A DNA stretch of 64,000 bases from Gammaproteobacteria bacterium (GCA_015490755.1 WFXF01000041.1:64002-128001); one strand, 5' to 3'. Shown: positions 28,046-51,347, counted from the stretch's first letter. Notes: a model not told the origin generated them from the letters alone. A program made the numbers and translations.

Positions 28046-28084
28046 TATAAAGTGGTTGATGTACTAGGCCAACAACTCAGTAGT

Positions 28085-28233
28085 GTAGGTCGGGTTAGCG
28101 CAGCGTAACCCGACAAAGTAATTGATGAGAAACATGACACCAATCCAGTAAGCCATAACTCATTCACTGCCCGCATCCGCCGCTAACACTTTCTTTCCAT
28201 CATGTCGGGTTACGCTGCGCTAACCCGACCTAC
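28085..28233. repeat. MITE-like element copy 1 (~149 bp), perfect 30-bp terminal inverted repeats GTAGGTCGGGTTAGCGCAGCGTAACCCGAC
   Basis: The left 30 bp is the exact reverse complement of the right 30 bp. Each TIR contains its own 7-bp stem (CGGGTTA..TAACCCG). The same element recurs at 50058 and 51190. Confidence 0.8.
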
Positions 28234-28359
28234 GTTACTTATGCTTATTTAAAACGGCTCTTTACATTATTACCTCAAGCCACAAACCTTGAGGACGTTG
28301 ACCTGCTGCTTCCATGGTACGTCAAGGGTGGGGTTGGTTAGACGCTTACTTTTCAGGAG

Positions 28360-37493: not shown

Positions 37494-39140
37494 ATGAGTC
37501 TATTAACAGCTTCTAAACCTTGGAATGCTTTGAAGGCCCATCAACAAGTGATCGCATCTCTGCATATGCGTCAACTCTTTGATACGGATTCTGAGCGTTT
37601 TGATAAATTTTCATTACGGTTCAATGATATTTTGGTGGATTATTCAAAAAACCGTATGACGGAGGAAACACTCTCTTTATTGTTTGATTTAGCTCGGCAA
37701 GCAGAATTAAGTGTTTCAATAAAGCGAATGTTTTCTGGAGAAAAAATTAACTTTACAGAAAACCGTGCGGTGCTTCATACGGCATTGAGAAATCGTTCTA
37801 ACCGCCCTGTTTTAGTCGATGGCAAAGATGTTATGCCTGATGTGAATGCTGTGTTGCGGCACATGAGGGAGTTCACAGAATCGGTTCGTAACGGTGGTTG
37901 GGTGGGTTGCACAGGTAAACCGATTACTGATGTTGTAAATATTGGAATAGGGGGCTCTGATTTAGGGCCTGTTATGGTCACGGAAGCGTTAAAACCTTAT
38001 GCTCAAACAGGTTTGAATGTTCATTTTGTTTCCAATATTGACGGAACTCATCTGGCTGAAGCTACCAAAAATTTGAATTATGATACAACACTGTTTGTTG
38101 TTGTCTCCAAAACTTTTACGACCCAGGAAACAATTACAAACGCAAATTCTGCACGTGACTGGTTTTTTCAGCAAGGGGGACATCCTGCATCTGTTGCCCA
38201 GCATTTTGTGGCGGTTTCCACGAATGCTCAAAAGGTGTCTGGTTTTGGAATTGACCCTAAAAACATGTTCGGATTTTGGGATTGGGTTGGTGGGCGTTAT
38301 TCGCTTTGGGGTGCAGTTGGTCTTTCGATTGCGCTTTATATTGGTATGGATCATTTTGAAGAGATGCTTACGGGTGCGCATGAGATGGATGAACACTTCC
38401 GTAGTACGCCGCTTGAGAAAAATATCCCTGTCATACTCGGAATGCTGGGTATTTGGTATAACAACTTTTTTGATGCTCAAAGCCATGCTTTGATGCCATA
38501 TGATCAATATTTGAGTCGGTTTCCTGCTTACTTTCAGCAGGGTGATATGGAGAGTAACGGTAAGCGAGTGGATCGTCAGGGGCATGTTGTTGATTACTCT
38601 ACCGGCCCTATTATTTGGGGTGAGCCTGGTACTAATGGACAACATGCTTTTTATCAGCTGATCCATCAAGGCTGCAAATTGATTCCTGCTGATTTTTTGA
38701 TTGGAGTTGAATCGCACAATCCAATGGGTGAGCACCATTCAATACTGCTTTCAAACTTTTTTGCACAGACAAAAGCACTGATGCGAGGCAAAACAGAAGA
38801 TGAAGCTCGAAGTGAGTTGGAAGCGCAAGGTATGACAGGTGAAGCGCTTGAAAAATTACTGCCACATAAAGTGTTTGAAGGTAATAAGCCAACAAATTCA
38901 ATTATGTTTCAAAAGCTGACACCAAAAACACTCGGGTCACTTCTTGCAATGTATGAACATAAAATATTTGTTCAGGGGGTTATCTGGAATATTAACTCTT
39001 TTGATCAGTGGGGCGTTGAATTAGGCAAGCAGCTAGCATCCGAAATTTTGCCTAAACTCTCTTCCAAAGAAAAAGAGAGTGGTAGTGATTCGTCAACAAA
39101 TGGATTGATTAATCATTATAAAAACCATAGGGCTGAATAG
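37494..39140 (+). CDS. pgi: Glucose-6-phosphate isomerase Pgi
   Basis: Near-colinear with E. coli Pgi. Start set at MSLLTAS (37494), preceded by GAGGAGTAAAGAAGG. The track's 37-codon upstream extension is unsupported. Confidence 0.9.
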
Positions 39141-39233
39141 TAAAAACTATAGAATGGAGGTGTACGGCAACGTTGTGCCTTGATGCGAAATGCCACAGGG
39201 TCGCTGGCCCGTCAATATAAACTGGTTGATGTA

Positions 39234-40451
39234 TTAGTTTTCTAATATCTCAAAATATTTTTGCTCAACCTGGTCGGCAATTGTACGGTATGTCCGGTTT
39301 TTAATAATATATTCACGCCCCATTCTCCCCATATTCTTGGCAATATCAGGGTTGTCTAATAGATAAATGATTGCATTTGCAAACGCCTGTTCTTCATAAG
39401 GAACACAAATCCCGCCCTGGCTCTCTTTAAGTACGAGTCGTTGTTCCGGGTGGTCATTGGCTATCACAGGCTTCTGTAATGCCATGTATTCAATCAGCTT
39501 TGTCGGTGAAGTTGAGTTTAGAACGGGGGTAGGATAAAATGGTGACAGGCAAACTGCGGATTGCTCGACGTATTCAAGAGCCTTGTCTCGTGCTAAAAGG
39601 CCAGTAAAGCTGACTGCGTGGTCAATCCCTAATTTCTTGGACTCTTCAATAAGAAACTCTTTGTCTTTAGGGTCTTCACTATCACCAACAAAGATTAATT
39701 CGCAATAATCTTTTTTCTGGAGAGCCAGTTTAAAGGCTCTTAAAACAAAGTCCATTTTTCTTGATCTGTTGAGTGTTCCAAGATAAATAACTTGATTAGG
39801 GTTGACTGTTTTATTGTGACTGTTTTTTTGATCTACAATATTTTCTTCAGGAACTCCCATAGGAATAGGGGTCATTTTTCTCAGTGGAACACCATGTTTT
39901 GTAATATCCATTTTCATCTGTTCACTTTGAACAAATATATGATCTGCGGATCGACATATTATTTTGTAAAGTAAAACTTTTAGGACATTTCCACGGATGA
40001 AATATAAAAGTGGGTAACGCGCTGATTTATCGTAAAACCTATATAAAGAGTCTTCTGGAAAGGGAAAAGATAGCCAGTAAACGAATTTTTTCCCGGTAAT
40101 TTTTTTTGTAATAATTGCGACTAATGCAGATATGAATTTATCTTTGACTTGTATTATGTCGTATGTATTGTGTTTTGATAGTTTATATAGCTTGAAATCG
40201 TTTTTGATGGAATAGAGGTGCTTTTTTAGCCTTGATATAAGAGAGGTGCCATTATCTGTTTTTCCTACCCAAACAGTACTATTTAGCCAGGTTGTTTTAT
40301 AGTTATGGTTACAGTCTGTTGCAGATTGCAATATCCATTCAATGCTATGGTTGCGTGATACAAGCTCTTTAGCGAATAAATCAACAACATCAACTCTAAA
40401 AGGGGGGAATTTGTCAGAAGATATAAATAGAATTTTTAATTTTTTTTTCAT
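39234..40451 (-). CDS. Glycosyltransferase, GT4 (glycosyl transferase group 1) family
   Basis: 405 aa. GT-B C-terminal pattern (E..G....E). Markedly AT-rich relative to its neighbours. Confidence 0.6.
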   Translation of the reverse strand: MKKKLKILFISSDKFPPFRVDVVDLFAKELVSRNHSIEWILQSATDCNHNYKTTWLNSTVWVGKTDNGTSLISRLKKHLYSIKNDFKLYKLSKHNTYDIIQVKDKFISALVAIITKKITGKKFVYWLSFPFPEDSLYRFYDKSARYPLLYFIRGNVLKVLLYKIICRSADHIFVQSEQMKMDITKHGVPLRKMTPIPMGVPEENIVDQKNSHNKTVNPNQVIYLGTLNRSRKMDFVLRAFKLALQKKDYCELIFVGDSEDPKDKEFLIEESKKLGIDHAVSFTGLLARDKALEYVEQSAVCLSPFYPTPVLNSTSPTKLIEYMALQKPVIANDHPEQRLVLKESQGGICVPYEEQAFANAIIYLLDNPDIAKNMGRMGREYIIKNRTYRTIADQVEQKYFEILEN

Positions 40452-40502
40452 ACTGATTATGGGGTTATTTATACCTTTTATAGAATGCTTAGAGCTAAAG
40501 AT

Positions 40503-41795
40503 TTATTTTATGTTTTTAATCCGTCGGTAGTTTTGCGAAGCTATATAGCCCGATAGAAATAAAAAACAGACGCTTGGTTGTTGTATTGCAATGCTATTTT
40601 TATAAAATAGCGTGATGACAATGATAGGGAATACTGCTGCTGATGCTAATGCAATATTATTTTCAACGCGATTACCATATCTAAGTGCAAGGCAATCTCT
40701 AAATATCATAAACATAATGAGCATAAATATTAGAAAGCCAACTATGCCAATTTCCCATATGAGTTGGGATGCGGTAGACATTCTTCCTCCATGCTTTATA
40801 TATTTATACGAATATTTTCCAGCCGTAAGTTTTGATGTTGGCTTGGATATTGCGTTTCCAATGCCGACACCAAAAAGATACTTTATAGGTTGATTTGAAA
40901 ATACCTGAAATGGAAGAGTGATACTGTCCACTCGCCCTATAGTGTTTTTTTCTGTGCCATCACTTTTTGTTGTCGCGCCTTTGTGTAAATAGCCTTCAAT
41001 GCGATCTTCACTGAATAGCATGTTTACAATGTTTCCATCCCACCTTTTGCCGTAATGAATATTGTATACGGCTACAAAAATAACTATAAAAAGAAAACCA
41101 AATATAAAAACCGGGAAAATTTCTTTAAGTTTTTTCCTTCTATCTTCAATAAAAAATATAGGGGCGATCAGAGCTATAGGTAAAAAGAAGAGTACCGACT
41201 TTGTTTCATTTAGTGCTGCAGGAAGAACGAGGAGAGGGATTGAAATAAGTAATAGTTTTAAACTTATTTCCTTTCTTAAATAAAAAGTGATAAGAAACGG
41301 TATGGCTGCAATTGCAATTATAGCAACTAATGCTGGATCTTTAAATGTTCCTGTAACCACATCCCCTGTCAATAAATGGCTGAACTCTATAAACCTCTGG
41401 TAGAAGATTAATGGTAATTGAATAAGAATAAGGAAAAAGATTAGCTTTATGATTTTTTTTATCTGTTCATTGGAGAAGTGATATACAGCTGGAAGAAAGA
41501 AAAAAGGTATATACCTGAAATATGCTCTGATACCATAAAAGATTGAGCCTGGTTGTACCTGATTTATGATGAGCCCTGCAATGATAAGCAGTAATAGAAA
41601 AATAATAACCAGTATATATTTAAAATGTAAAGTAATTTTTTTTCTTGAAAGAGCTATGGCTATGATAACTATCACCGTAATACCTGATAGCAACTCAAGC
41701 GGTATTGTTGCGACTCCACTTGGTGCGCCCAGCTTCACCAGGCTGTATTCACCAATAAAGGCAACTATCAATATGGTATATACAAATTTAAGCAT
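40503..41795 (-). CDS. Polytopic membrane protein, O-antigen polymerase/ligase (Wzy/EpsG)-like
   Basis: 430 aa. About 10-12 hydrophobic segments. Very AT-rich. Adjacent to the GT4 gene. Confidence 0.4.
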   Translation of the reverse strand: MLKFVYTILIVAFIGEYSLVKLGAPSGVATIPLELLSGITVIVIIAIALSRKKITLHFKYILVIIFLLLLIIAGLIINQVQPGSIFYGIRAYFRYIPFFFLPAVYHFSNEQIKKIIKLIFFLILIQLPLIFYQRFIEFSHLLTGDVVTGTFKDPALVAIIAIAAIPFLITFYLRKEISLKLLLISIPLLVLPAALNETKSVLFFLPIALIAPIFFIEDRRKKLKEIFPVFIFGFLFIVIFVAVYNIHYGKRWDGNIVNMLFSEDRIEGYLHKGATTKSDGTEKNTIGRVDSITLPFQVFSNQPIKYLFGVGIGNAISKPTSKLTAGKYSYKYIKHGGRMSTASQLIWEIGIVGFLIFMLIMFMIFRDCLALRYGNRVENNIALASAAVFPIIVITLFYKNSIAIQQPSVCFLFLSGYIASQNYRRIKNIK

Positions 41796-41968
41796 AAATC
41801 GTTGTGTGTCGTTTAAATTATATAAATCTTAATAAAGTGCAATATTTTTATTTAAGTATATGATCGACCGCTTGATGAACTTAAATAAGCTTTTATTGTT
41901 GAACTTTAAGGGCTATTTTAAAAATATATACTGAGATGGGATAGGGGTTAGTTTTTGTTTATTAATTG

Positions 41969-42055
41969 TGGTGCCGAGAAGAGGACTTGAACCTCCACGG
42001 GGTTACCCCCACTAGCACCTGAAGCTAGCGCGTCTACCAATTCCGCCACCTCGGC
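41969..42055 (-). tRNA. tRNA-Leu (anticodon CAG)
   Basis: The minus-strand sequence GCCGAGGTGGCGGAATTGGTAGACGCGCTAGCTTCAGGTGCTAGT...GGTTCAAGTCCTCTTCTCGGCACCA folds as a long-variable-arm tRNA. The anticodon loop TTCAGGT gives CAG. Confidence 0.85.
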
Positions 42056-45303: not shown

Positions 45304-46722
45304 ATGAGTGTTCGTACCCGTTTTGCACCGAGTCCAACAGGTTATTTGCATGTAGGTGGTGCACGCACCGCGCTTTTTTCATGGCTCTATGCTCGTAAGC
45401 ATGGTGGTTCATTTATTTTACGTATCGAAGATACTGATCAGGAACGTTCTACTGCTGAGTCGGTTAATGCCATTTTGGAAGGTATGACATGGCTCGGCCT
45501 GGAGTATGATGAAGGTCCGTTATATCAGACTGACCGTTTTGCTCGATATGACGAAGTGATCCAGAAGCTTTTGGAGGAAGGTAAAGCTTACTATTGTTAT
45601 TGCTCAAAAGATAAGCTGGAAATTATGCGTGCCAAGCAGATGGCCCGTAAAGAGAAGCCTCGTTATGATGGCTGTTGTCGGAATGGAGTTGATTCACCGC
45701 CCGAAGGTGTCAGCCCTGTTGTTCGATTTAAAACTCCGAAAAATGGCTCTGTAGTGATTGATGACCGGGTTCGCGGTCAAGTGGTTTTTCAAAATAGTGA
45801 ACTGGATGATCTGGTTATTGCCCGTTCTGATGGCACACCAACCTATAACTTGACTGTTGTAGTCGATGATCTGGATATGGGGTTAACTCATATTATTCGA
45901 GGTGATGATCACCTGAATAATACGCCCCGCCAGATTAATATTATGAAAGCATTAGGTGTTGTTGATATTCCGAGTTACGCTCATGTTCCCATGATTTTGG
46001 GGGATGATGGCAAGCGACTTTCAAAGAGACATGGTGCCGTGGGTGTCATGCAGTATCGTGATGATGGTTACCTTCCTGAGGCATTATTAAACTATTTAGT
46101 GCGGTTGGGTTGGTCTCATGGTGACCAAGAGATCTTTTCTTTAGATGAGTTGATCGAGTTGTTTGATGATAAAGATATTAATAATTCAGCATCTACTTTC
46201 AATACAAGTAAGCTGCTCTGGCTGAATCAGCACTACATAATGAATAGTGCGCCAGAGCATATTGCACACCACTTAAGTTGGCATATGGGTCAATTGGGTA
46301 TCGATCCAAGTCAAGGGCCAAGCCTTGTTGATGTTGTGCTTGCAACGAGAGAGCGCTCAAAGACACTGGTTGAAATGGCGCAGGGTAGTTTGTTTTTTTA
46401 TAAAGATTTTGAAGAATTTGATGTCAAGGCAGCTAAAAAGAATTTGAAAGCCGCCATTCAAAAGCCACTGATGGCACTGCGTGACCAGCTGGAAGCACTG
46501 GAACTCTGGAAGGGTGAAGCGATCTACAATGCAGTTATTGAAACGGCTAAGAGTTTTGAGATAAAAATGGGTAAATTGGCTCAACCACTTCGTGTTGCGA
46601 TTACGGGTAATTCAATGTCACCACCGATTGATATTACTGCCGAATTGATTGGCAAGGAAAGAGTGTTGAAACGCATTGATTTCGCATTAAAGTATATACA
46701 AAATCGTATGGATAAAAATTAG
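45304..46722 (+). CDS. gltX: Glutamyl-tRNA synthetase
   Basis: 472 aa. Class I motifs: HIGH region ([15 protein letters not shown]) and KMSKS variant (LSKR). Confidence 0.92.
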
Positions 46723-46781: not shown

Positions 46782-46857
46782 GGGGCCATAGCTCAGCTGG
46801 GAGAGCGCTACACTGGCAGTGTAGAGGTCGGCGGTTCGATCCCGCCTGGCTCCACCA
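46782..46857 (+). tRNA. tRNA-Ala (anticodon GGC) with G3:U70 identity pair and encoded CCA
   Basis: GGGGCCATAGCTCAGCTGGGAGAGCGCTACACTGGCAGTGTAGAGGTCGGCGGTTCGATCCCGCCTGGCTCCACCA. Cloverleaf folds. The anticodon loop CTGGCAG gives GGC. Confidence 0.9.
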
Positions 46858-46893: not shown

Positions 46894-46969
<76 letters not shown>

Positions 46970-47014
46970 TACATATCCGGTTTTCAACCGGGATGCTGTA
47001 GTAAATACAGCAAT

Positions 47015-47554
47015 CTAAAGTCTCTGGTCAAGCACGATGTGCTTGACCAGAGTTTTTAGTAACTCTTTCCAGCGCTTGCTGGATGTCTCTTCGAAAGTTC
47101 TAGCCAATGTTTTTAGTGTCTTGGCCATGTCAGACTCGCTGAGGTTGGCAAGTACCTTCTGTACGGAGGTTTCTTGCTCCACGCGACCTATCTGCGCCTC
47201 AAGGCTTCTACGCTGGGCGGTCAGCTCGTTAACCTTCTCAAGCGCTGGATCTGGGTCATCCAACTTTACGATCAAATCCATCGTTTTCTTGATCTGACTG
47301 TTGATGAGCGTGATTTCATCGCGAAACCCAATAGTCGGGTCGTTGAGTGTTGAGTGTGCTGCTTTCCTTGTGCTTTTAGTCACATCGGCGATAAATTTAG
47401 GATAGACCATATCGCCCAATATCTTATTCGTGAGTGCTGTATCGACAATGGACATATTGAGCCAGCGGCTTTTCTTGCCGCGTTTGGGTTTGGTGCGGTA
47501 GTGTTGTTGCCGGTCGCCCATCCACTGCGTATTATTGCGAACGTGAACACCCAA
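47015..47554 (-). pseudogene. Probable C-terminal remnant of a recombinase (coiled-coil plus a terminal large-serine-recombinase-like tail); assignment speculative
   Basis: 179-aa ORF with no upstream catalytic domain. Coiled-coil segment LEKVNELTAQRRSLEAQIGRVEQE and tail LVKHIVLDQRL. GC-rich. Its start codon in the track is TTG. The 3' end abuts the tRNA terminator. Confidence 0.25.
47023..47057 (+). terminator. Rho-independent terminator after tRNA-Glu
   Basis: Perfect 13-bp stem TCTGGTCAAGCAC / GTGCTTGACCAGA with a 3-nt loop, followed by GTTTTT. Confidence 0.7.
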
Positions 47555-47844
47555 TGGCGGTCATCGTGAACATCAACTTCCACCGCCCCTGCTTTTTCCC
47601 GGAAACCTGCACCGATGCCAGGGGAAAACAGCGCAAGGTCTACCGCTACGAGGACATGATGACGCCCTATGACAAGCTTAAATCACTCACCAACGCCAAG
47701 GATTATTTGAAGCCTGGTCTCAGCTTTGAAATACTCGACAAGCTCGCTCACCAGATCAGCGACAACCAGGCGGCGGACCGGCTCCAAAAGGCCCGCCAGA
47801 CACTATTCAAAACCATTCATGGGCGGACCCTGAAAACCGGCTGA
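47554..47844 (+). pseudogene. Short GC-rich ORF, possible C-terminal fragment of a DDE (rve-like) transposase/integrase
   Basis: 96 aa. The N..RP(C) segment (NFHRPCFF) and MTPYDKL resemble the YN..RPH...TP.E tail of IS3/IS481-type transposases. No upstream catalytic domain. Weak. Confidence 0.2.
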
Positions 47845-48155
47845 CAAAACACGCTCTCACCCTCTCTTCAGACTCATTTATGGATTGGAAAATACTGACC
47901 GTCTAATTGGTTTATCTGACGGTGCCAGTAGTCTATGGATAGTTCCTGTGAGAGAGAATGTTCATGTGGTACATCTTGTGTGTATTCCCAAACTCATGAT
48001 TTTTCAAAATGTGAATTGAGGTGGTCTGCTCAACCTCCCCAAAAAAGAGGCGCACCAAGCCGTGTTTTCATGGTGTAGTTGGTAGAGTGGGAATTCCCTG
48101 AGTCGTAAAACAGGGCCAGGCGACTCGCCTGCCATTTCGAGTGCAAACGGCGTCT

Positions 48156-49073
48156 TCAGCTCCAGGGGCCGCCTGGTTTCCACTTCAAGGTAAAATTCTC
48201 CTCACACACCAAAGCCTGCGTTGGTGGAACAAGAAACTTCTCCAGGAAATGGCAAGTATCTTCCAGTGACAGCGGTGTGGCGACGAGCATCCCTTTTCTC
48301 AGGAAAGCATTCCACTGCATGTTCTTTTGCCTATCTTCATAAAATTCGGGACTAAACCCGGATGGCGTCTGTTTCGGCAGTGGTGTGCGACGACACGAGA
48401 AGGTGTTGCCGACTGCTTCGGACAATATTGATCCGTCGAAATCAAACGAACGGGCAATGACCCAAATATCGTAGAAATCTTTCATTCGGCTATTCGCCAT
48501 GCCCAGATTGACCAGCGCTTGGTATTTTTCCGCCACCACCGTTTCTCGGGGATACGCTCTCAAACGAGGTGTGGGTGTATCCAACAGAGTGGGATATTCG
48601 ATCTCTCTTGCTTCGGGTGTTACGACATCCCCAAAACCGATGTCGGCATGAATCGATATTCTGGCTCCGGCCAGATCACCGAACAATTTTACCCGCATGC
48701 CTCCATATTCTGATTCGTCGCGAATTGCCTCAACTCGCACACTCTCTGGCGCTAGGGTTATACCGTCATCCTCGACAGGGAAGTTACAGAGTTCCTGAAA
48801 GATTGCTTGCAGGCTTAGTTCACTGCTGTCGCCAAAGCCAAGAAAATCAACATCGCGTGTTGGACGGTGCGGTTGATCACTCCAAACCATGAAAAGCATC
48901 GCGCCCTTCAGAATAAAGCGATCCCGATAGTTTGATTGGCTTAGGCGGTACAAGAGCCGTTCCAATCCGTATTGAGTCAGGAGTAGTTGGAAATCTTCAC
49001 CTCTTTTCCGTGCCAGTGACAGTAATCGGTCACGCATTGAGGCTGCAGTGTTTTCCCCACGTTTATCATTCAT
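48156..49073 (-). CDS. abiEii: AbiEii/AbiGii-family nucleotidyltransferase toxin (type IV TA, DUF1814)
   Basis: 305 aa. The N-terminus MRDRLLSLARKRGEDFQLLLTQYGLERLLYRL is typical of AbiEii. 4-bp overlap with the upstream antitoxin gene. GC-rich. Confidence 0.75.
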   Translation of the reverse strand: MNDKRGENTAASMRDRLLSLARKRGEDFQLLLTQYGLERLLYRLSQSNYRDRFILKGAMLFMVWSDQPHRPTRDVDFLGFGDSSELSLQAIFQELCNFPVEDDGITLAPESVRVEAIRDESEYGGMRVKLFGDLAGARISIHADIGFGDVVTPEAREIEYPTLLDTPTPRLRAYPRETVVAEKYQALVNLGMANSRMKDFYDIWVIARSFDFDGSILSEAVGNTFSCRRTPLPKQTPSGFSPEFYEDRQKNMQWNAFLRKGMLVATPLSLEDTCHFLEKFLVPPTQALVCEENFTLKWKPGGPWS

Positions 49074-49681
49074 GTCGCGACTGACTCCAGGTAGGGACGC
49101 ATGACATTGCGGACACGGCAGATATCAGCGTAGTGCCACAGATCATCCATAGTACAGCGCCGCGCCTGCCAACACTCCCTGAGTGCCTCAATGGCAACGT
49201 CCAGGCCGATTTTATTCCGGTATTTAAAACAGTCTGCAACCGTTTTGGCAGGGCAATATACCTGTACAGTGACTCCCTCGATTTGGTGTTTTTCAATACC
49301 CGCATCAAGGGTAGTTTGGGAGAATCGCACGATACGCAGCGGTGGATACTCAATACGCGGTCGCCAAGCTTTTTCACCTATGGCTAGCCAGACTTCAAAT
49401 GGCGCTTGGGTTGTAAGTTCGTGAAAGCGCAGAGCGGATAGTAGGCAGACCACGCCCTTGGGTACTCGTTTACAGACCTCGGCCAGTGAATGGTGTTCAG
49501 TAGCGTCGCTCCCTGGCAGGACATAAAGGCCACGGCCAATCCGTTGTAGTTTACTGGCATCACAAAGGCGGCTGAGATAGGTTCTGGGGATGCCGTGGGA
49601 ATCCAGGTCTCGGGGACGCAGAACGCCCTTATTCTTGACCATCTCCAGGACTCTTTCTGTGTGTGTGGCTCTGAGTTTCAT
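49070..49681 (-). CDS. abiEi: AbiEi-family antitoxin / transcriptional autoregulator (type IV TA)
   Basis: N-terminal wHTH (VLRPRDLDSHGIPRTYLSRLCDASKLQRIGRGLYVLP), characteristic of AbiEi_4. Start set at the ATG at 49681 (MKLRATH). A perfect inverted-repeat operator lies immediately upstream. Confidence 0.7.
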   Translation of the reverse strand: MKLRATHTERVLEMVKNKGVLRPRDLDSHGIPRTYLSRLCDASKLQRIGRGLYVLPGSDATEHHSLAEVCKRVPKGVVCLLSALRFHELTTQAPFEVWLAIGEKAWRPRIEYPPLRIVRFSQTTLDAGIEKHQIEGVTVQVYCPAKTVADCFKYRNKIGLDVAIEALRECWQARRCTMDDLWHYADICRVRNVMRPYLESVAT

Positions 49682-49687
49682 GGCATT

Positions 49688-49739
49688 AATGTTACAATAC
49701 CTAGTGTAATGCATACAACTCTTTAGGTATTGTAACATT
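49688..49739. promoter_or_regulatory. Putative AbiEi operator: perfect 16-bp inverted repeats AATGTTACAATACCTA / TAGGTATTGTAACATT separated by 20 bp
   Basis: Seen directly at 49688-49703 and 49724-49739, just 5' of the abiEi start on the minus strand. AbiEi antitoxins are known to autoregulate via paired inverted repeats. Confidence 0.6.
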
Positions 49740-50008
49740 GAGGGGTATTTCTTATAGTAGCTCGGTTGTCATGTAACATGTTGATTGTTTTTGATAAATG
49801 CAACTTCTTTGGCAACACAGCTTGTCTGTTCTTTGTGATCAGCAGATACCGGATATCTATCGCGTACCCTTGGGGACGCCATATTTGGCCTGTTATCCAC
49901 TGCAAACCTGTAGTGGATTCAGCAATCTAAAGTCTCTCGACCAGAGGTCTTATAGGTTATTTACAGCGCTCTTTCGGTATCGGCCGGAAGTTCTCAGCGA
50001 AATTTTTC

Positions 50009-50345
50009 GGCTCTATGTGATTTATAGTGGGTAGGTGTCATAATCTGCAGTCGTAGTGTAGGTCGGGTTAGCGCAGCGTAATCCGACAAAGTAATTGACG
50101 AGAGACATGACACCAATCCAGCAAGCCACAACTCATTCACTACCCACATCCGCCGCTAACACCTTCCTTTCCATCATGTCGGGTCAGCTCCTCCCGCTAG
50201 AAAACATCATAACGCATTGACATATAAAGAAAATGCGATAAAAAGTTTACGAAATAATTATGTTTAACTTATTGACTATAAAGTAAAATTTTCTCTGTCG
50301 GGAGTTCTTGATGTCGGGTTACGCTGCGCTAACCCGACCTACGTT
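50009..50345. repeat. MITE-like element copy 2, extended form, with a 127-bp nested insertion
   Basis: Shares the 49-bp left extension GGCTCTATGTGATTTATAGTGGGTAGGTGTCATAATCTGCAGTCGTAGT with copy 3. The 30-bp TIRs are at 50058-50087 and 50313-50342. The internal 127 bp (50184-50310) are absent from copies 1 and 3 and are flanked by a duplicated ATGTCGGG. Confidence 0.75.
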
Positions 50346-50524
50346 ACTCTGCTCTGCCTGAAGAGCGTAGTGCGGGAAATACGCACGCTACGTTCTATGG
50401 GAATCGGTGAGGGATGCCGTGGGGCATCCCCCTATCCCGATTAGCTGTTCACGAAGCTTTCTCAATATCTCAAGTTTATGGAATATTTGGCGTAATTACA
50501 TTATAGTTACTTAATATTTCTGGA

Positions 50525-51140: not shown

Positions 51141-51347
51141 GGCTCTATGTGATTTATAGTGGGTAAGTGTCATAATCTGCAGTCGTAGTGTAGGTCGGGT
51201 TAGCGCAGCGTAACCCGACAAAGCAATTGACGAGAAACATGACACCAATCCAGCAAAGCAAGCCACAACTTATTCACTACCCACATCCGCCGCTAACACC
51301 TTCCTTTCCATCATGTCGGGTTACGCTGCGCTAACCCGACCTACGTC
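51141..51347. repeat. MITE-like element copy 3, extended form, intact
   Basis: Same 49-bp left extension as copy 2, then the 155-bp core at 51190-51344 with perfect 30-bp TIRs. About 95% identical to copy 1 over the core. Confidence 0.8.

Follow-up and report, generated by a model that had tools for sequence, protein, structure and literature searches.

We analysed a 64,000-nucleotide stretch of DNA, hereafter the window, from a Gammaproteobacteria bacterium (GCA_015490755.1 WFXF01000041.1:64002-128001), in which a small islet carrying the abiEi-abiEii genes follows a tRNA-Glu gene. Judged from its sequence, the segment from about 46958 to 49871 is probably what decay has left of an integrative element that entered the tRNA-Glu 3' end by means of its own large serine recombinase (LSR). 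The target gene, tRNA-Glu(ttc, UUC), was located by ARAGORN at 46894-46969 on the plus strand and is intact. The islet contains an intact abiEi-abiEii pair and two gene fragments, one from an LSR gene and one from an rve-type transposase gene.

Terminal repeats and composition of the islet

The last 15 nt of tRNA-Glu (CCCTTGGGGACGCCA) occurred twice in the 64 kb when up to 2 mismatches were allowed, at 46955-46969 and 49867-49881. The chance expectation was 0.04, and none of 100 shuffled sequences reached two matches. The identity extends to an exact 17-nt direct repeat (CCCTTGGGGACGCCATA, ending in CCATA), with the left copy at 46955-46971 (+) and the right copy at 49867-49883. The initial annotation had reported the tRNA-Glu 3' end to be copied 2.9 kb downstream, and both the 15-mer and the exact 17 nt bear this out. 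The repeats form a single pair within the window and do not belong to a multi-copy family there.

A second conserved block (CAGCAATCTAAAGTCTCT, 18 nt) was also present in two copies in the window at up to 3 mismatches (47008-47025 and 49920-49937; chance expectation, 0.05). Its distance from the tRNA end is 38 nt at both ends of the islet; the equal spacing described before was right, and the reported length of 37 nt was not. The two blocks are present as annotated, but they are not isolated from each other. A repeat search joined the two ends in one 85-nt pair with 75% identity, and in a MAFFT alignment they stayed alike over about 190 nt (about 77%). The attR copy has a deletion that takes the left arm and loop of a hairpin, seen as 18-19 gapped columns in two alignments.

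The GC content of the islet (46970-49866) is 49.4%, versus 43.4% in the rest of the window, in agreement with the earlier description of GC-richer DNA. The islet ranked 7th among 612 sliding 2.9-kb windows, and the richest 3-kb window of the 64-kb profile lies here.

Attachment sites

The left attachment site, attL (46936-46981, +), comprises a B arm within the tRNA T-arm (46936-46957), a TT dinucleotide taken as the putative crossover (46958-46959), and a P' arm (46960-46981, GGGGACGCCATACATATCCGGT). The right site, attR (49848-49893, +), comprises a P arm (49848-49869, ACCGGATATCTATCGCGTACCC), TT (49870-49871), and the displaced tRNA 3' end with the flank of an earlier resident (49872-49893). 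Around TT, the P and P' arms are complementary at 19 of 22 positions; at the 18 outer positions, 16 match (binomial P = 2e-8). The reconstructed attP is a 46-bp imperfect palindrome, ACCGGATATCTATCGCGTACCC-TT-GGGGACGCCATACATATCCGGT, centred on the TT within CCCC-TT-GGGG of the tRNA acceptor strand. The attL sites were symmetric at just 8-10 of 22 positions.

The attP sites of phiC31/Bxb1-type LSRs are compact and show an imperfect dyad symmetry, at whose centre lies a non-palindromic dinucleotide. The geometry of the islet sites points to the LSR type, unlike the cores of tyrosine integrases. The earlier reading of the repeats as the att footprint of a tRNA-targeting element holds for the integrated islet, and the att geometry with the adjacent remnant points to an LSR instead of the tyrosine integrases that commonly produce this classic footprint.

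The same arms were found elsewhere. The P' arm was identical after tRNA-Glu in contig L096 and differed at 1 of 22 positions in L087, and the P arm was identical in L093, joined there to another right flank. Additionally, a natural P-TT-P' (ACAGCCCATCCATCGCGTACCC-TT-GGGGACGCCACATTTAGGCTGT) beside an intact LSR of the family in L099 and L100 is symmetric at 15 of 22 positions and has the inner P-arm sequence of the window (ATCGCGTACCC). The window P arm encodes ASPRVRDRY, and its ASPRVRD is the same as in the tail of protein P0243 and in the natural attP of L099 and L100.

The serine recombinase remnant and its family

The younger LSR pseudogene lies on the minus strand at 46935-47554. Residues ~310-484 are read in a 179-aa open reading frame (ORF; 47554-47027), and residues 485-515 follow in another frame (47027-46935). 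The recombinase on board is not functional, as it is confined to residues ~310-515, frameshifted, and devoid of the catalytic domain. The 179-aa ORF corresponds to the C-terminal ~40% of an LSR of ~516 aa; the pseudogene has lost the resolvase catalytic domain together with the larger part of the recombinase domain.

The 179-aa ORF matched the PHROGs family phrog_95 'integrase' over positions 389-557 of 651 (E 7e-10). An exhaustive HMMER search returned 104 matches, and in the full-length ones (~490-540 aa) the ORF aligns to residues ~310-480. The four that were scanned (P0006, P0007, P0014, and P0018; 516-524 aa) all carry an N-terminal PF00239 Resolvase domain. A word-indexed homologue search with the ORF gave nothing at E<=1e-3, tblastn against plasmids gave no match, and with Pfam and NCBIfam all signals, a faint one to XisF among them, stayed at noise level below the thresholds. 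The check by profile models suggested in the initial annotation was therefore silent with Pfam, and the serine recombinase was recognized by PHROGs and HMMER. The statement that only recombinase and transposase fragments are left was correct, these being the LSR stub and the rve-type stub.

Intact relatives in L088 and L089 encode a 516-aa LSR with Resolvase and Recombinase domains; among the intact relatives scanned, PF00239 was always present and PF07508 in some only. The N-terminus of an intact relative resembles the TnpX and YokA/SprA structures. In tblastn with the L088 LSR, 47524-47027 corresponded to residues 319-484 with 51% identity, and 47027-46935, in the other frame, to residues 485-515 with 74% identity. 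The translation after the frameshift (PETLDCCIYYSIPVENRICMASPRGVEPLLP) runs into the tRNA and is nearly the same as the tail that P0260 encodes in frame; at 85% protein identity, P0260 is the closest relative of the younger LSR. The frameshift is a 1-nt deletion at ~47028, in the left arm of the hairpin (CTCTGG-TCAAGCAC in the window versus CTCTGGGTCAAGCAC in L096). Due to the missing base, the stem is perfect and a TAG at 47015-47017 ends the 179-aa ORF.

The intact ORF in L088 and L089 crosses the hairpin (LVEHIVLD), the second block (PETLDCCIHY), and the tRNA 3' end, and terminates with MASPRGFEPLSPP-stop within the tRNA. The second block is coding sequence from the 3' end of the LSR gene, which in intact relatives (…LDPETLDCCIHY…MASPRGFEPLLPP-stop) continues through attP into the tRNA; in the window, the block includes the stop codon of the frameshifted 179-aa ORF. 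A long bipartite att site made of the second block and the 38-nt spacer was also considered, and it was ruled out because intact relatives translate straight through.

The LSR clade comprises at least 1360 proteins at E<=1e-20, mostly metagenomic. Among 114 full-length relatives, 54 end in ASPRG[FV]EP..PP-stop, which is the reverse reading of tRNA-Glu. A further 46 share the ASPR core but end differently, in some cases with a P-arm-like tail (e.g., ASPRVRDGW).

Islet ends in other hosts

We scanned for the tRNA-Glu 3' end followed, after 30-46 nt, by the second block and retrieved seven metagenome contigs from other organisms. Six of them have an intact tRNA-Glu with a body unlike that of the window (e.g., in the anticodon stem) and, behind it, the ~130-nt element end seen in the window; L084, the seventh, shows a junction of the attR type. 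The tRNA bodies vary between hosts as far as the T-loop and then match the element sequence. L096 comes from another organism (gltX DNA 69% identical) and has its own tRNA-Glu body, followed by an in-frame LSR with 82.5% DNA and 85% protein identity. At the opposite end, L093, from a different sample, carries abiEi-abiEii in a segment that is 94% identical to the window between position 48118 and the att core, and its flank after …GGGGACGCCA is unlike that of the window. Both islet ends are shown by these contig comparisons to be mobile across hosts. Related contigs thus carry the same ends with different flanks, rather than the same content without repeat boundaries.

A GltX scan of genome contigs, in which the nearest species was only 69% identical, supplied naive tRNA-Glu flanks. 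At the loci of ten other species (eleven sites), these flanks were mutually unrelated and had no LSR. Together with the mobile ends, they serve the purpose of the empty-site comparison suggested in the initial annotation. Neither the attL pattern nor the P arm had a match in scans of viral contigs (0 each). We also looked for a second family member in which attL and attR could both be seen, and found none; L097 and L098 have attL only.

The contents of the related contigs were diverse. In L088 (2487-6575, +; 6620-11039, -), we found a 1362-aa TIR-NB-ARC-WD40 protein with an NLR/Avs-like defence architecture, DUF4400, a TraD/TraG-like coupling protein, and a TraI_2 relaxase; from this gene set, some LSR elements would be conjugative or mobilisable with defence cargo. 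In L099 (3899-5458) and L100 (1375-2934), an LSR of the clade stands at the end of a phage-like set (DUF551, YqaJ exonuclease, SSB) with P-TT-P' uninterrupted, a context in which the clade serves phages as well as elements resembling integrative and conjugative elements (ICEs). The LSR of L096 (8799-11146, 1133-7726) has its N-terminus cut by an IS3-family insertion, and a gene for a 2197-aa RHS/YD-repeat toxin follows. L085 (3791-11730) retains LSR residues 423-516 alone beside tRNA-Glu; beyond them lie genes for a WD40 protein and for Mu-like baseplate/tail components (Gp44-48, Baseplate_J).

Alternative explanations

Three other histories of the islet were weighed. One is a classic tyrosine-integrase tRNA island that has wholly lost its integrase, the serine stub being unrelated cargo or debris. 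A tRNA gene with a displaced repeat of its 3' end is the standard mark of such islands, and serine recombinases were stated in 2014 as not known at tRNA genes (PMC4383910). However, nine of ten contigs with the element end have an LSR gene or remnant that starts at the att core and reads through it (the tenth, L093, ends ~30 nt past the core), and nearly half of the family C-termini counted above (54/114) spell out the tRNA-Glu 3' end. Symmetric arms of 22 bp flanking a 2-bp centre are a layout of the LSR type, rather than a core with arm sites. Moreover, the four principal ORFs between the repeats had no PF00589 match, the short overlapping ORFs being left unscanned. We consider this origin very improbable. 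Even less credit is due to a history without site-specific integration, that is, a diverged segmental duplication of the region downstream of tRNA-Glu or homologous recombination via the flanks. The similarity of the ends over ~190 nt at ~77%, beyond a short exact core, would suit it, but two LSR 3' ends of different subtypes (L089 versus L087/L096) explain that length, the same ends stand beside different tRNA-Glu bodies and flanks elsewhere, and naive tRNA-Glu flanks lack the sequence. A duplication would also leave the inverted P/P' symmetry unexplained.

The third history accepts the LSR remnant and has AbiE dropped into it later by the neighbouring rve-type transposon, never having been LSR cargo. 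The transposase fragment lies ~310 bp from abiEii, the L093 DNA left of abiE is also transposon-end-like, with four TCGTCCAxxTG repeats, and AbiE pairs occur in many unrelated contexts. In L093, however, abiE runs without a break into the identical P arm and the att core (94%) while the outer flank is different, so the linkage of abiE to the P arm is older than both insertions. The 19/22 pairing of P with P' marks them as both ends of one attP, and the transposon-like DNAs left of abiE are unrelated between the window and L093. A later arrival of AbiE is accordingly regarded as improbable.

Several observations weigh against an LSR-driven element in the tRNA-Glu 3' end. The window itself has no resolvase domain, and catalysis by its LSR at this site is inferred from the relatives. 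Neither an empty site nor an excision junction turned up: exact GltX occurred in only 4 contigs, of which the two long conspecific ones (L001 and L002, 99.9% identical) are both occupied and a third was too short. Every attR-type junction seen (window, L084, L093) precedes another LSR-type end, and no clean attR beside naive host DNA was among them. The P arm of L084 is symmetric to known P' arms over just ~8-9 nt, as judged by eye. Crossover at TT is suggested by the dyad centre, and the sequence alone would fit an exchange anywhere in the 17-nt identity.

Proposed integration model

In the LSR-driven integration that we favour, the LSR gene would sit at the left end of the element and be read towards the tRNA, with attP within its last ~15 codons. 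The P' arm would repeat the tRNA 3' end (GGGGACGCCA), and exchange at TT would restore tRNA-Glu at attL and shift the original 3' end to attR. The element would supply the end of tRNA-Glu from about 46958 (the last ~12 nt). The predicted excision products would be a restored site, GACTCCCC-TT-GGGGACGCCATATTTGGCC, and a circle junction, CGCGTACCC-TT-GGGGACGCCATACATATCC. Both att arms are intact, matching L096 (P') and L093 (P), and the LSR is dead. Formally, the stub would be a cis-mobilisable element (CIME), movable by a related incoming LSR.

In the free or attP state, the P arm specifies the LSR tail (MASPRVRDGW); after integration, the tail derives from the antisense strand of tRNA-Glu and reads MASPRGFEPLLPP-stop, as in the 54 relatives above. 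By analogy, this tail swap might sense the integration state and tune the stability or directionality of the integrase, and tRNA-Glu might be an accretion hotspot with re-mobilisable, att-competent stubs, a proposal that we regard as rather unlikely. In the integration-dependent immunity of mycobacteriophages, attP lies within a regulatory gene.

Probable serial integration and decay

An older LSR pseudogene remnant lies on the minus strand at 49868-50007. It retains residues ~456-508 only, has an in-frame stop (ETLDC-stop-IHYRFAVDNRPNMASPR), and is ended at ~50009 by a miniature inverted-repeat transposable element (MITE). A deletion has removed part of its hairpin. Its tblastn identities were 73% and 87%, closest to the L089/L088 subtype; the attL-side LSR, unlike this attR flank, groups with the L087/L096 subtype. 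We infer from these subtypes at least two serial integrations, an older relative first and then the AbiE-bearing element between the tRNA body and the resident. The second block would occur at attR because an older element of the same kind was already resident, and ~140 bp of the 3' end of its LSR gene would survive to the right of attR. A third copy of the tRNA 3' end, marking the attR of the old element, was not found in the window beyond chance-level matches with 3 mismatches, and the right end of the older element was presumably deleted. The family copies beside tRNA-Glu are mostly truncated (L085, L086, L087, L090, L096), and together with the L084 and L093 junctions they make tandem accretion and decay look typical.

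The rve-type DDE transposase/integrase gene is represented by a 3' fragment (47554-47844, +), a 96-aa ORF covering the last ~86 codons. With tblastn and BLASTP, 86 aa of this ORF aligned at 41% identity with residues 343-428 of an 'integrase' of 432 aa that is encoded beside TniQ on the Polaromonas plasmid CP087967. The rve match of the Polaromonas protein scored 31.5 bits, below the Pfam gathering cut-off of 32.6, and the 96-aa ORF itself had no Pfam match. The stub directly adjoins the younger LSR remnant where the latter is cut off on its 5' side, and the deletion junction lies at ~47552. A later deletion, with ends at about codon 310 of the LSR gene and inside the rve-type gene, would have removed the LSR catalytic domain and anything between; the 1-nt deletion then would have frameshifted the LSR tail.

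A non-coding spacer follows (47845-48116), with no ORF of >=60 aa and no similarity to the matching part of L093; it is presumably a transposon-end remnant. Conversely, the L093 DNA left of abiE had no similarity to window positions 47541-48160. Just past the abiE terminator, L093 (reverse complement, 1-100) has four direct repeats of TCGTCCA(A/G)(G/T)TG, 22-23 nt apart, which look like the transposase-binding sites of a Tn7/Mu-like transposon end unrelated to the window stub.

The initial annotation had proposed a defence islet that was acquired and then lost its mobility functions. The loss is evident, whereas acquisition as an islet is just one possibility, since the original element may have been an LSR+AbiE mini-element of ~3.3 kb or much larger. 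The intact relatives include phage-like elements (L099) and elements resembling ICEs or integrative and mobilisable elements (L088).

The AbiE module

The abiEii gene (48156-49073, -) encodes a full-length nucleotidyltransferase toxin of 305 aa, as assigned by Pfam (PF08843, E 7e-47, model positions 1-229 of 238) and PADLOC (AbiEii, E 1e-125, 5-298 of 299). At least 7953 homologues were found at E<=1e-30 (8000 candidates scored), and almost all of the best 120 of the 7953 are 305 aa long. The abiEi gene (49070-49681, -) encodes the antitoxin and transcriptional regulator, with a likely start at ATG 49681 (203 aa) that was also called in three relatives; its ORF is open up to 49738, and an alternative call of 190 aa starts at 49642. 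AbiEi matched PF13338 (E 1.7e-11) and PADLOC AbiEi (E 1.4e-95, model 2-197 of 198, from residue 25). The two genes share a 4-nt ATGA overlap (49070-49073). The presence of abiEi-abiEii, already annotated, was confirmed by Pfam and PADLOC. The module looks intact since AbiEii homologues are so numerous and almost all of those listed have 305 aa.

A perfect 16-bp inverted repeat (AATGTTACAATACCTA / TAGGTATTGTAACATT) with a 20-nt spacer lies directly upstream of abiEi (49688-49739). Both arms are identical in L093, and the spacer differs there. Published AbiE systems are autoregulated through an upstream operator, and by analogy the inverted repeat is a putative AbiEi operator. AbiEi would repress the operon via this repeat and neutralise AbiEii. 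A terminator-like hairpin downstream of abiEii (48117-48131, -) coincides with the left limit of the L093 homology. The abiEi-abiEii operon is apparently intact and autoregulated, and AbiE was probably kept since it is addictive and/or phage-protective.

Hairpin and neighbouring features

A perfect 14-bp hairpin with a 3-nt loop, followed by TTTTT, occupies 47022-47057 (+; stem-loop 47022-47052) within the LSR coding sequence (LVKHIVLD). Folding of the 101-nt region gave -45.7 kcal/mol (z = -9.3). Intact relatives have the same hairpin, except for a 1-nt bulge by which the LSR gene stays in frame. The hairpin with its T-run is probably the intrinsic terminator of the tRNA-Ala/tRNA-Glu transcript, as predicted from its structure, and would be supplied by the element. 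A strong stem with a T-run just inside attL had been noted before; it measures 14 bp at 47022-47052, not 13 bp at 47023-47057. The tRNA-Ala(ggc) gene (46782-46857, ARAGORN) precedes tRNA-Glu, and gltX (45304-46722) lies directly upstream of the pair.

To the right of the islet, the window has an intact-looking type II pair, mazE (PF04014, 50525-50794) and mazF-pemK (PF02452, 50788-51111), both on the plus strand. A MITE-like family of ~160-206 nt with terminal inverted repeats (GTAGGTCGGGTTAGCGCAGCGTAACCCGACA) occurs at 28080-28239, 50009-50348, and 51141-51346. An insert of 126 nt (50185-50310) interrupts the second copy, which is the one that cuts off the older LSR remnant, and mazEF is bracketed by two copies in direct orientation. 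The mazEF pair may have come with the older element or have been inserted independently. Elsewhere in the window, the region of about 39000-42000 has the lowest GC content (35% versus 43.6% overall), adjoins tRNA-Leu(cag) (41969-42055, -), and contains a glycosyltransferase and a 430-aa protein without a Pfam match; it may be further horizontally acquired DNA.

Discussion

Integration by an LSR would explain the GC-rich 3-kb patch and mark abiEi-abiEii as horizontally acquired defence or addiction cargo. The 3' end of tRNA-Glu and its likely terminator would be element-derived. The islet itself is ordinary, and the att architecture of the family is the more interesting by-product: the LSR clade appears dedicated to tRNA-Glu, and attP can be read from the C-terminal tail of the protein. 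Finders of tRNA islands restricted to tyrosine integrases would mis-annotate such islands, and LSRs with a conserved, near-universal bacterial attB in tRNA-Glu could become integration tools.

The AbiE systems of Lactococcus and Streptococcus agalactiae are type IV toxin-antitoxin and abortive infection systems. The islet pair resembles them in its two-gene operon with a 4-nt overlap, the N-terminal winged helix of AbiEi, the nucleotidyltransferase domain of AbiEii, and the inverted repeat directly upstream, fit for negative autoregulation. The difference is that the islet pair belongs to an abundant environmental clade of Gammaproteobacteria type and is known here as sequence.

The mechanism is not new, as serine-recombinase islands at the tmRNA gene and proviruses at tRNA-Glu have already been described. 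In Dehalococcoides, ssrA islands carry the serine recombinase DsiB, with the repeat embedded in the recombinase gene (McMurdie et al. 2011, PMC3146451). Like the islet, the DsiB islands have a serine recombinase (~540 aa there) encoded on the reverse strand directly at attL, the attL repeat inside the recombinase gene, insertion in the T-loop/3' region, and tandem stacking downstream of the target. The far boundary is in both cases a short direct repeat of the RNA gene 3' end, 20 bp in the DsiB islands versus 17 bp in the islet, and decayed or cis-mobilisable remnants were discussed there as they are here. They differ in target (tmRNA versus tRNA-Glu) and in host (Chloroflexi versus Gammaproteobacteria-like metagenome-assembled genomes), the clades being likened by description, and no second small recombinase (DsiA/CcrA-like) stands beside the intact relatives examined.

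The group-1 proviruses of Thermotogota (MPV1 and others) lie beside tRNA-Glu and encode serine recombinases (2021; bioRxiv 10.1101/2020.11.07.368316). These recombinases were hypothesised to recognise tRNA-Glu, and they are encoded at the prophage end adjoining the tRNA, as in the islet clade. Some clade members are phage-like too, as in L099, where YqaJ and SSB are encoded next to the LSR gene. In contrast, the proviruses belong to another phylum and their att architecture was described in less detail, the two being likened by description, and the islet is a dead remnant with defence cargo.

The 2014 Islander paper confines the term 'integrase' to the tyrosine family (PMC4383910). With the tyrosine islands treated there, the islet shares the regenerated tRNA gene, the displaced piece of its 3' end, a foreign composition, accretion in tandem, and an integrase in decay. 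It differs in its serine recombinase and in a compact, symmetric attP of ~46 bp with a 2-bp centre, located inside the 3' end of the recombinase gene. With phiC31, Bxb1, A118/LI, TnpX, and SPbeta SprA, the family has in common the domain order of Resolvase, Recombinase, and C-terminal coiled coil, as well as a compact attP. Those recombinases target protein-coding or intergenic sites, whereas the islet clade targets a tRNA gene and restores it. Unlike the characterised LSRs, the islet clade has an attP that overlaps the stop-proximal codons of its own integrase.

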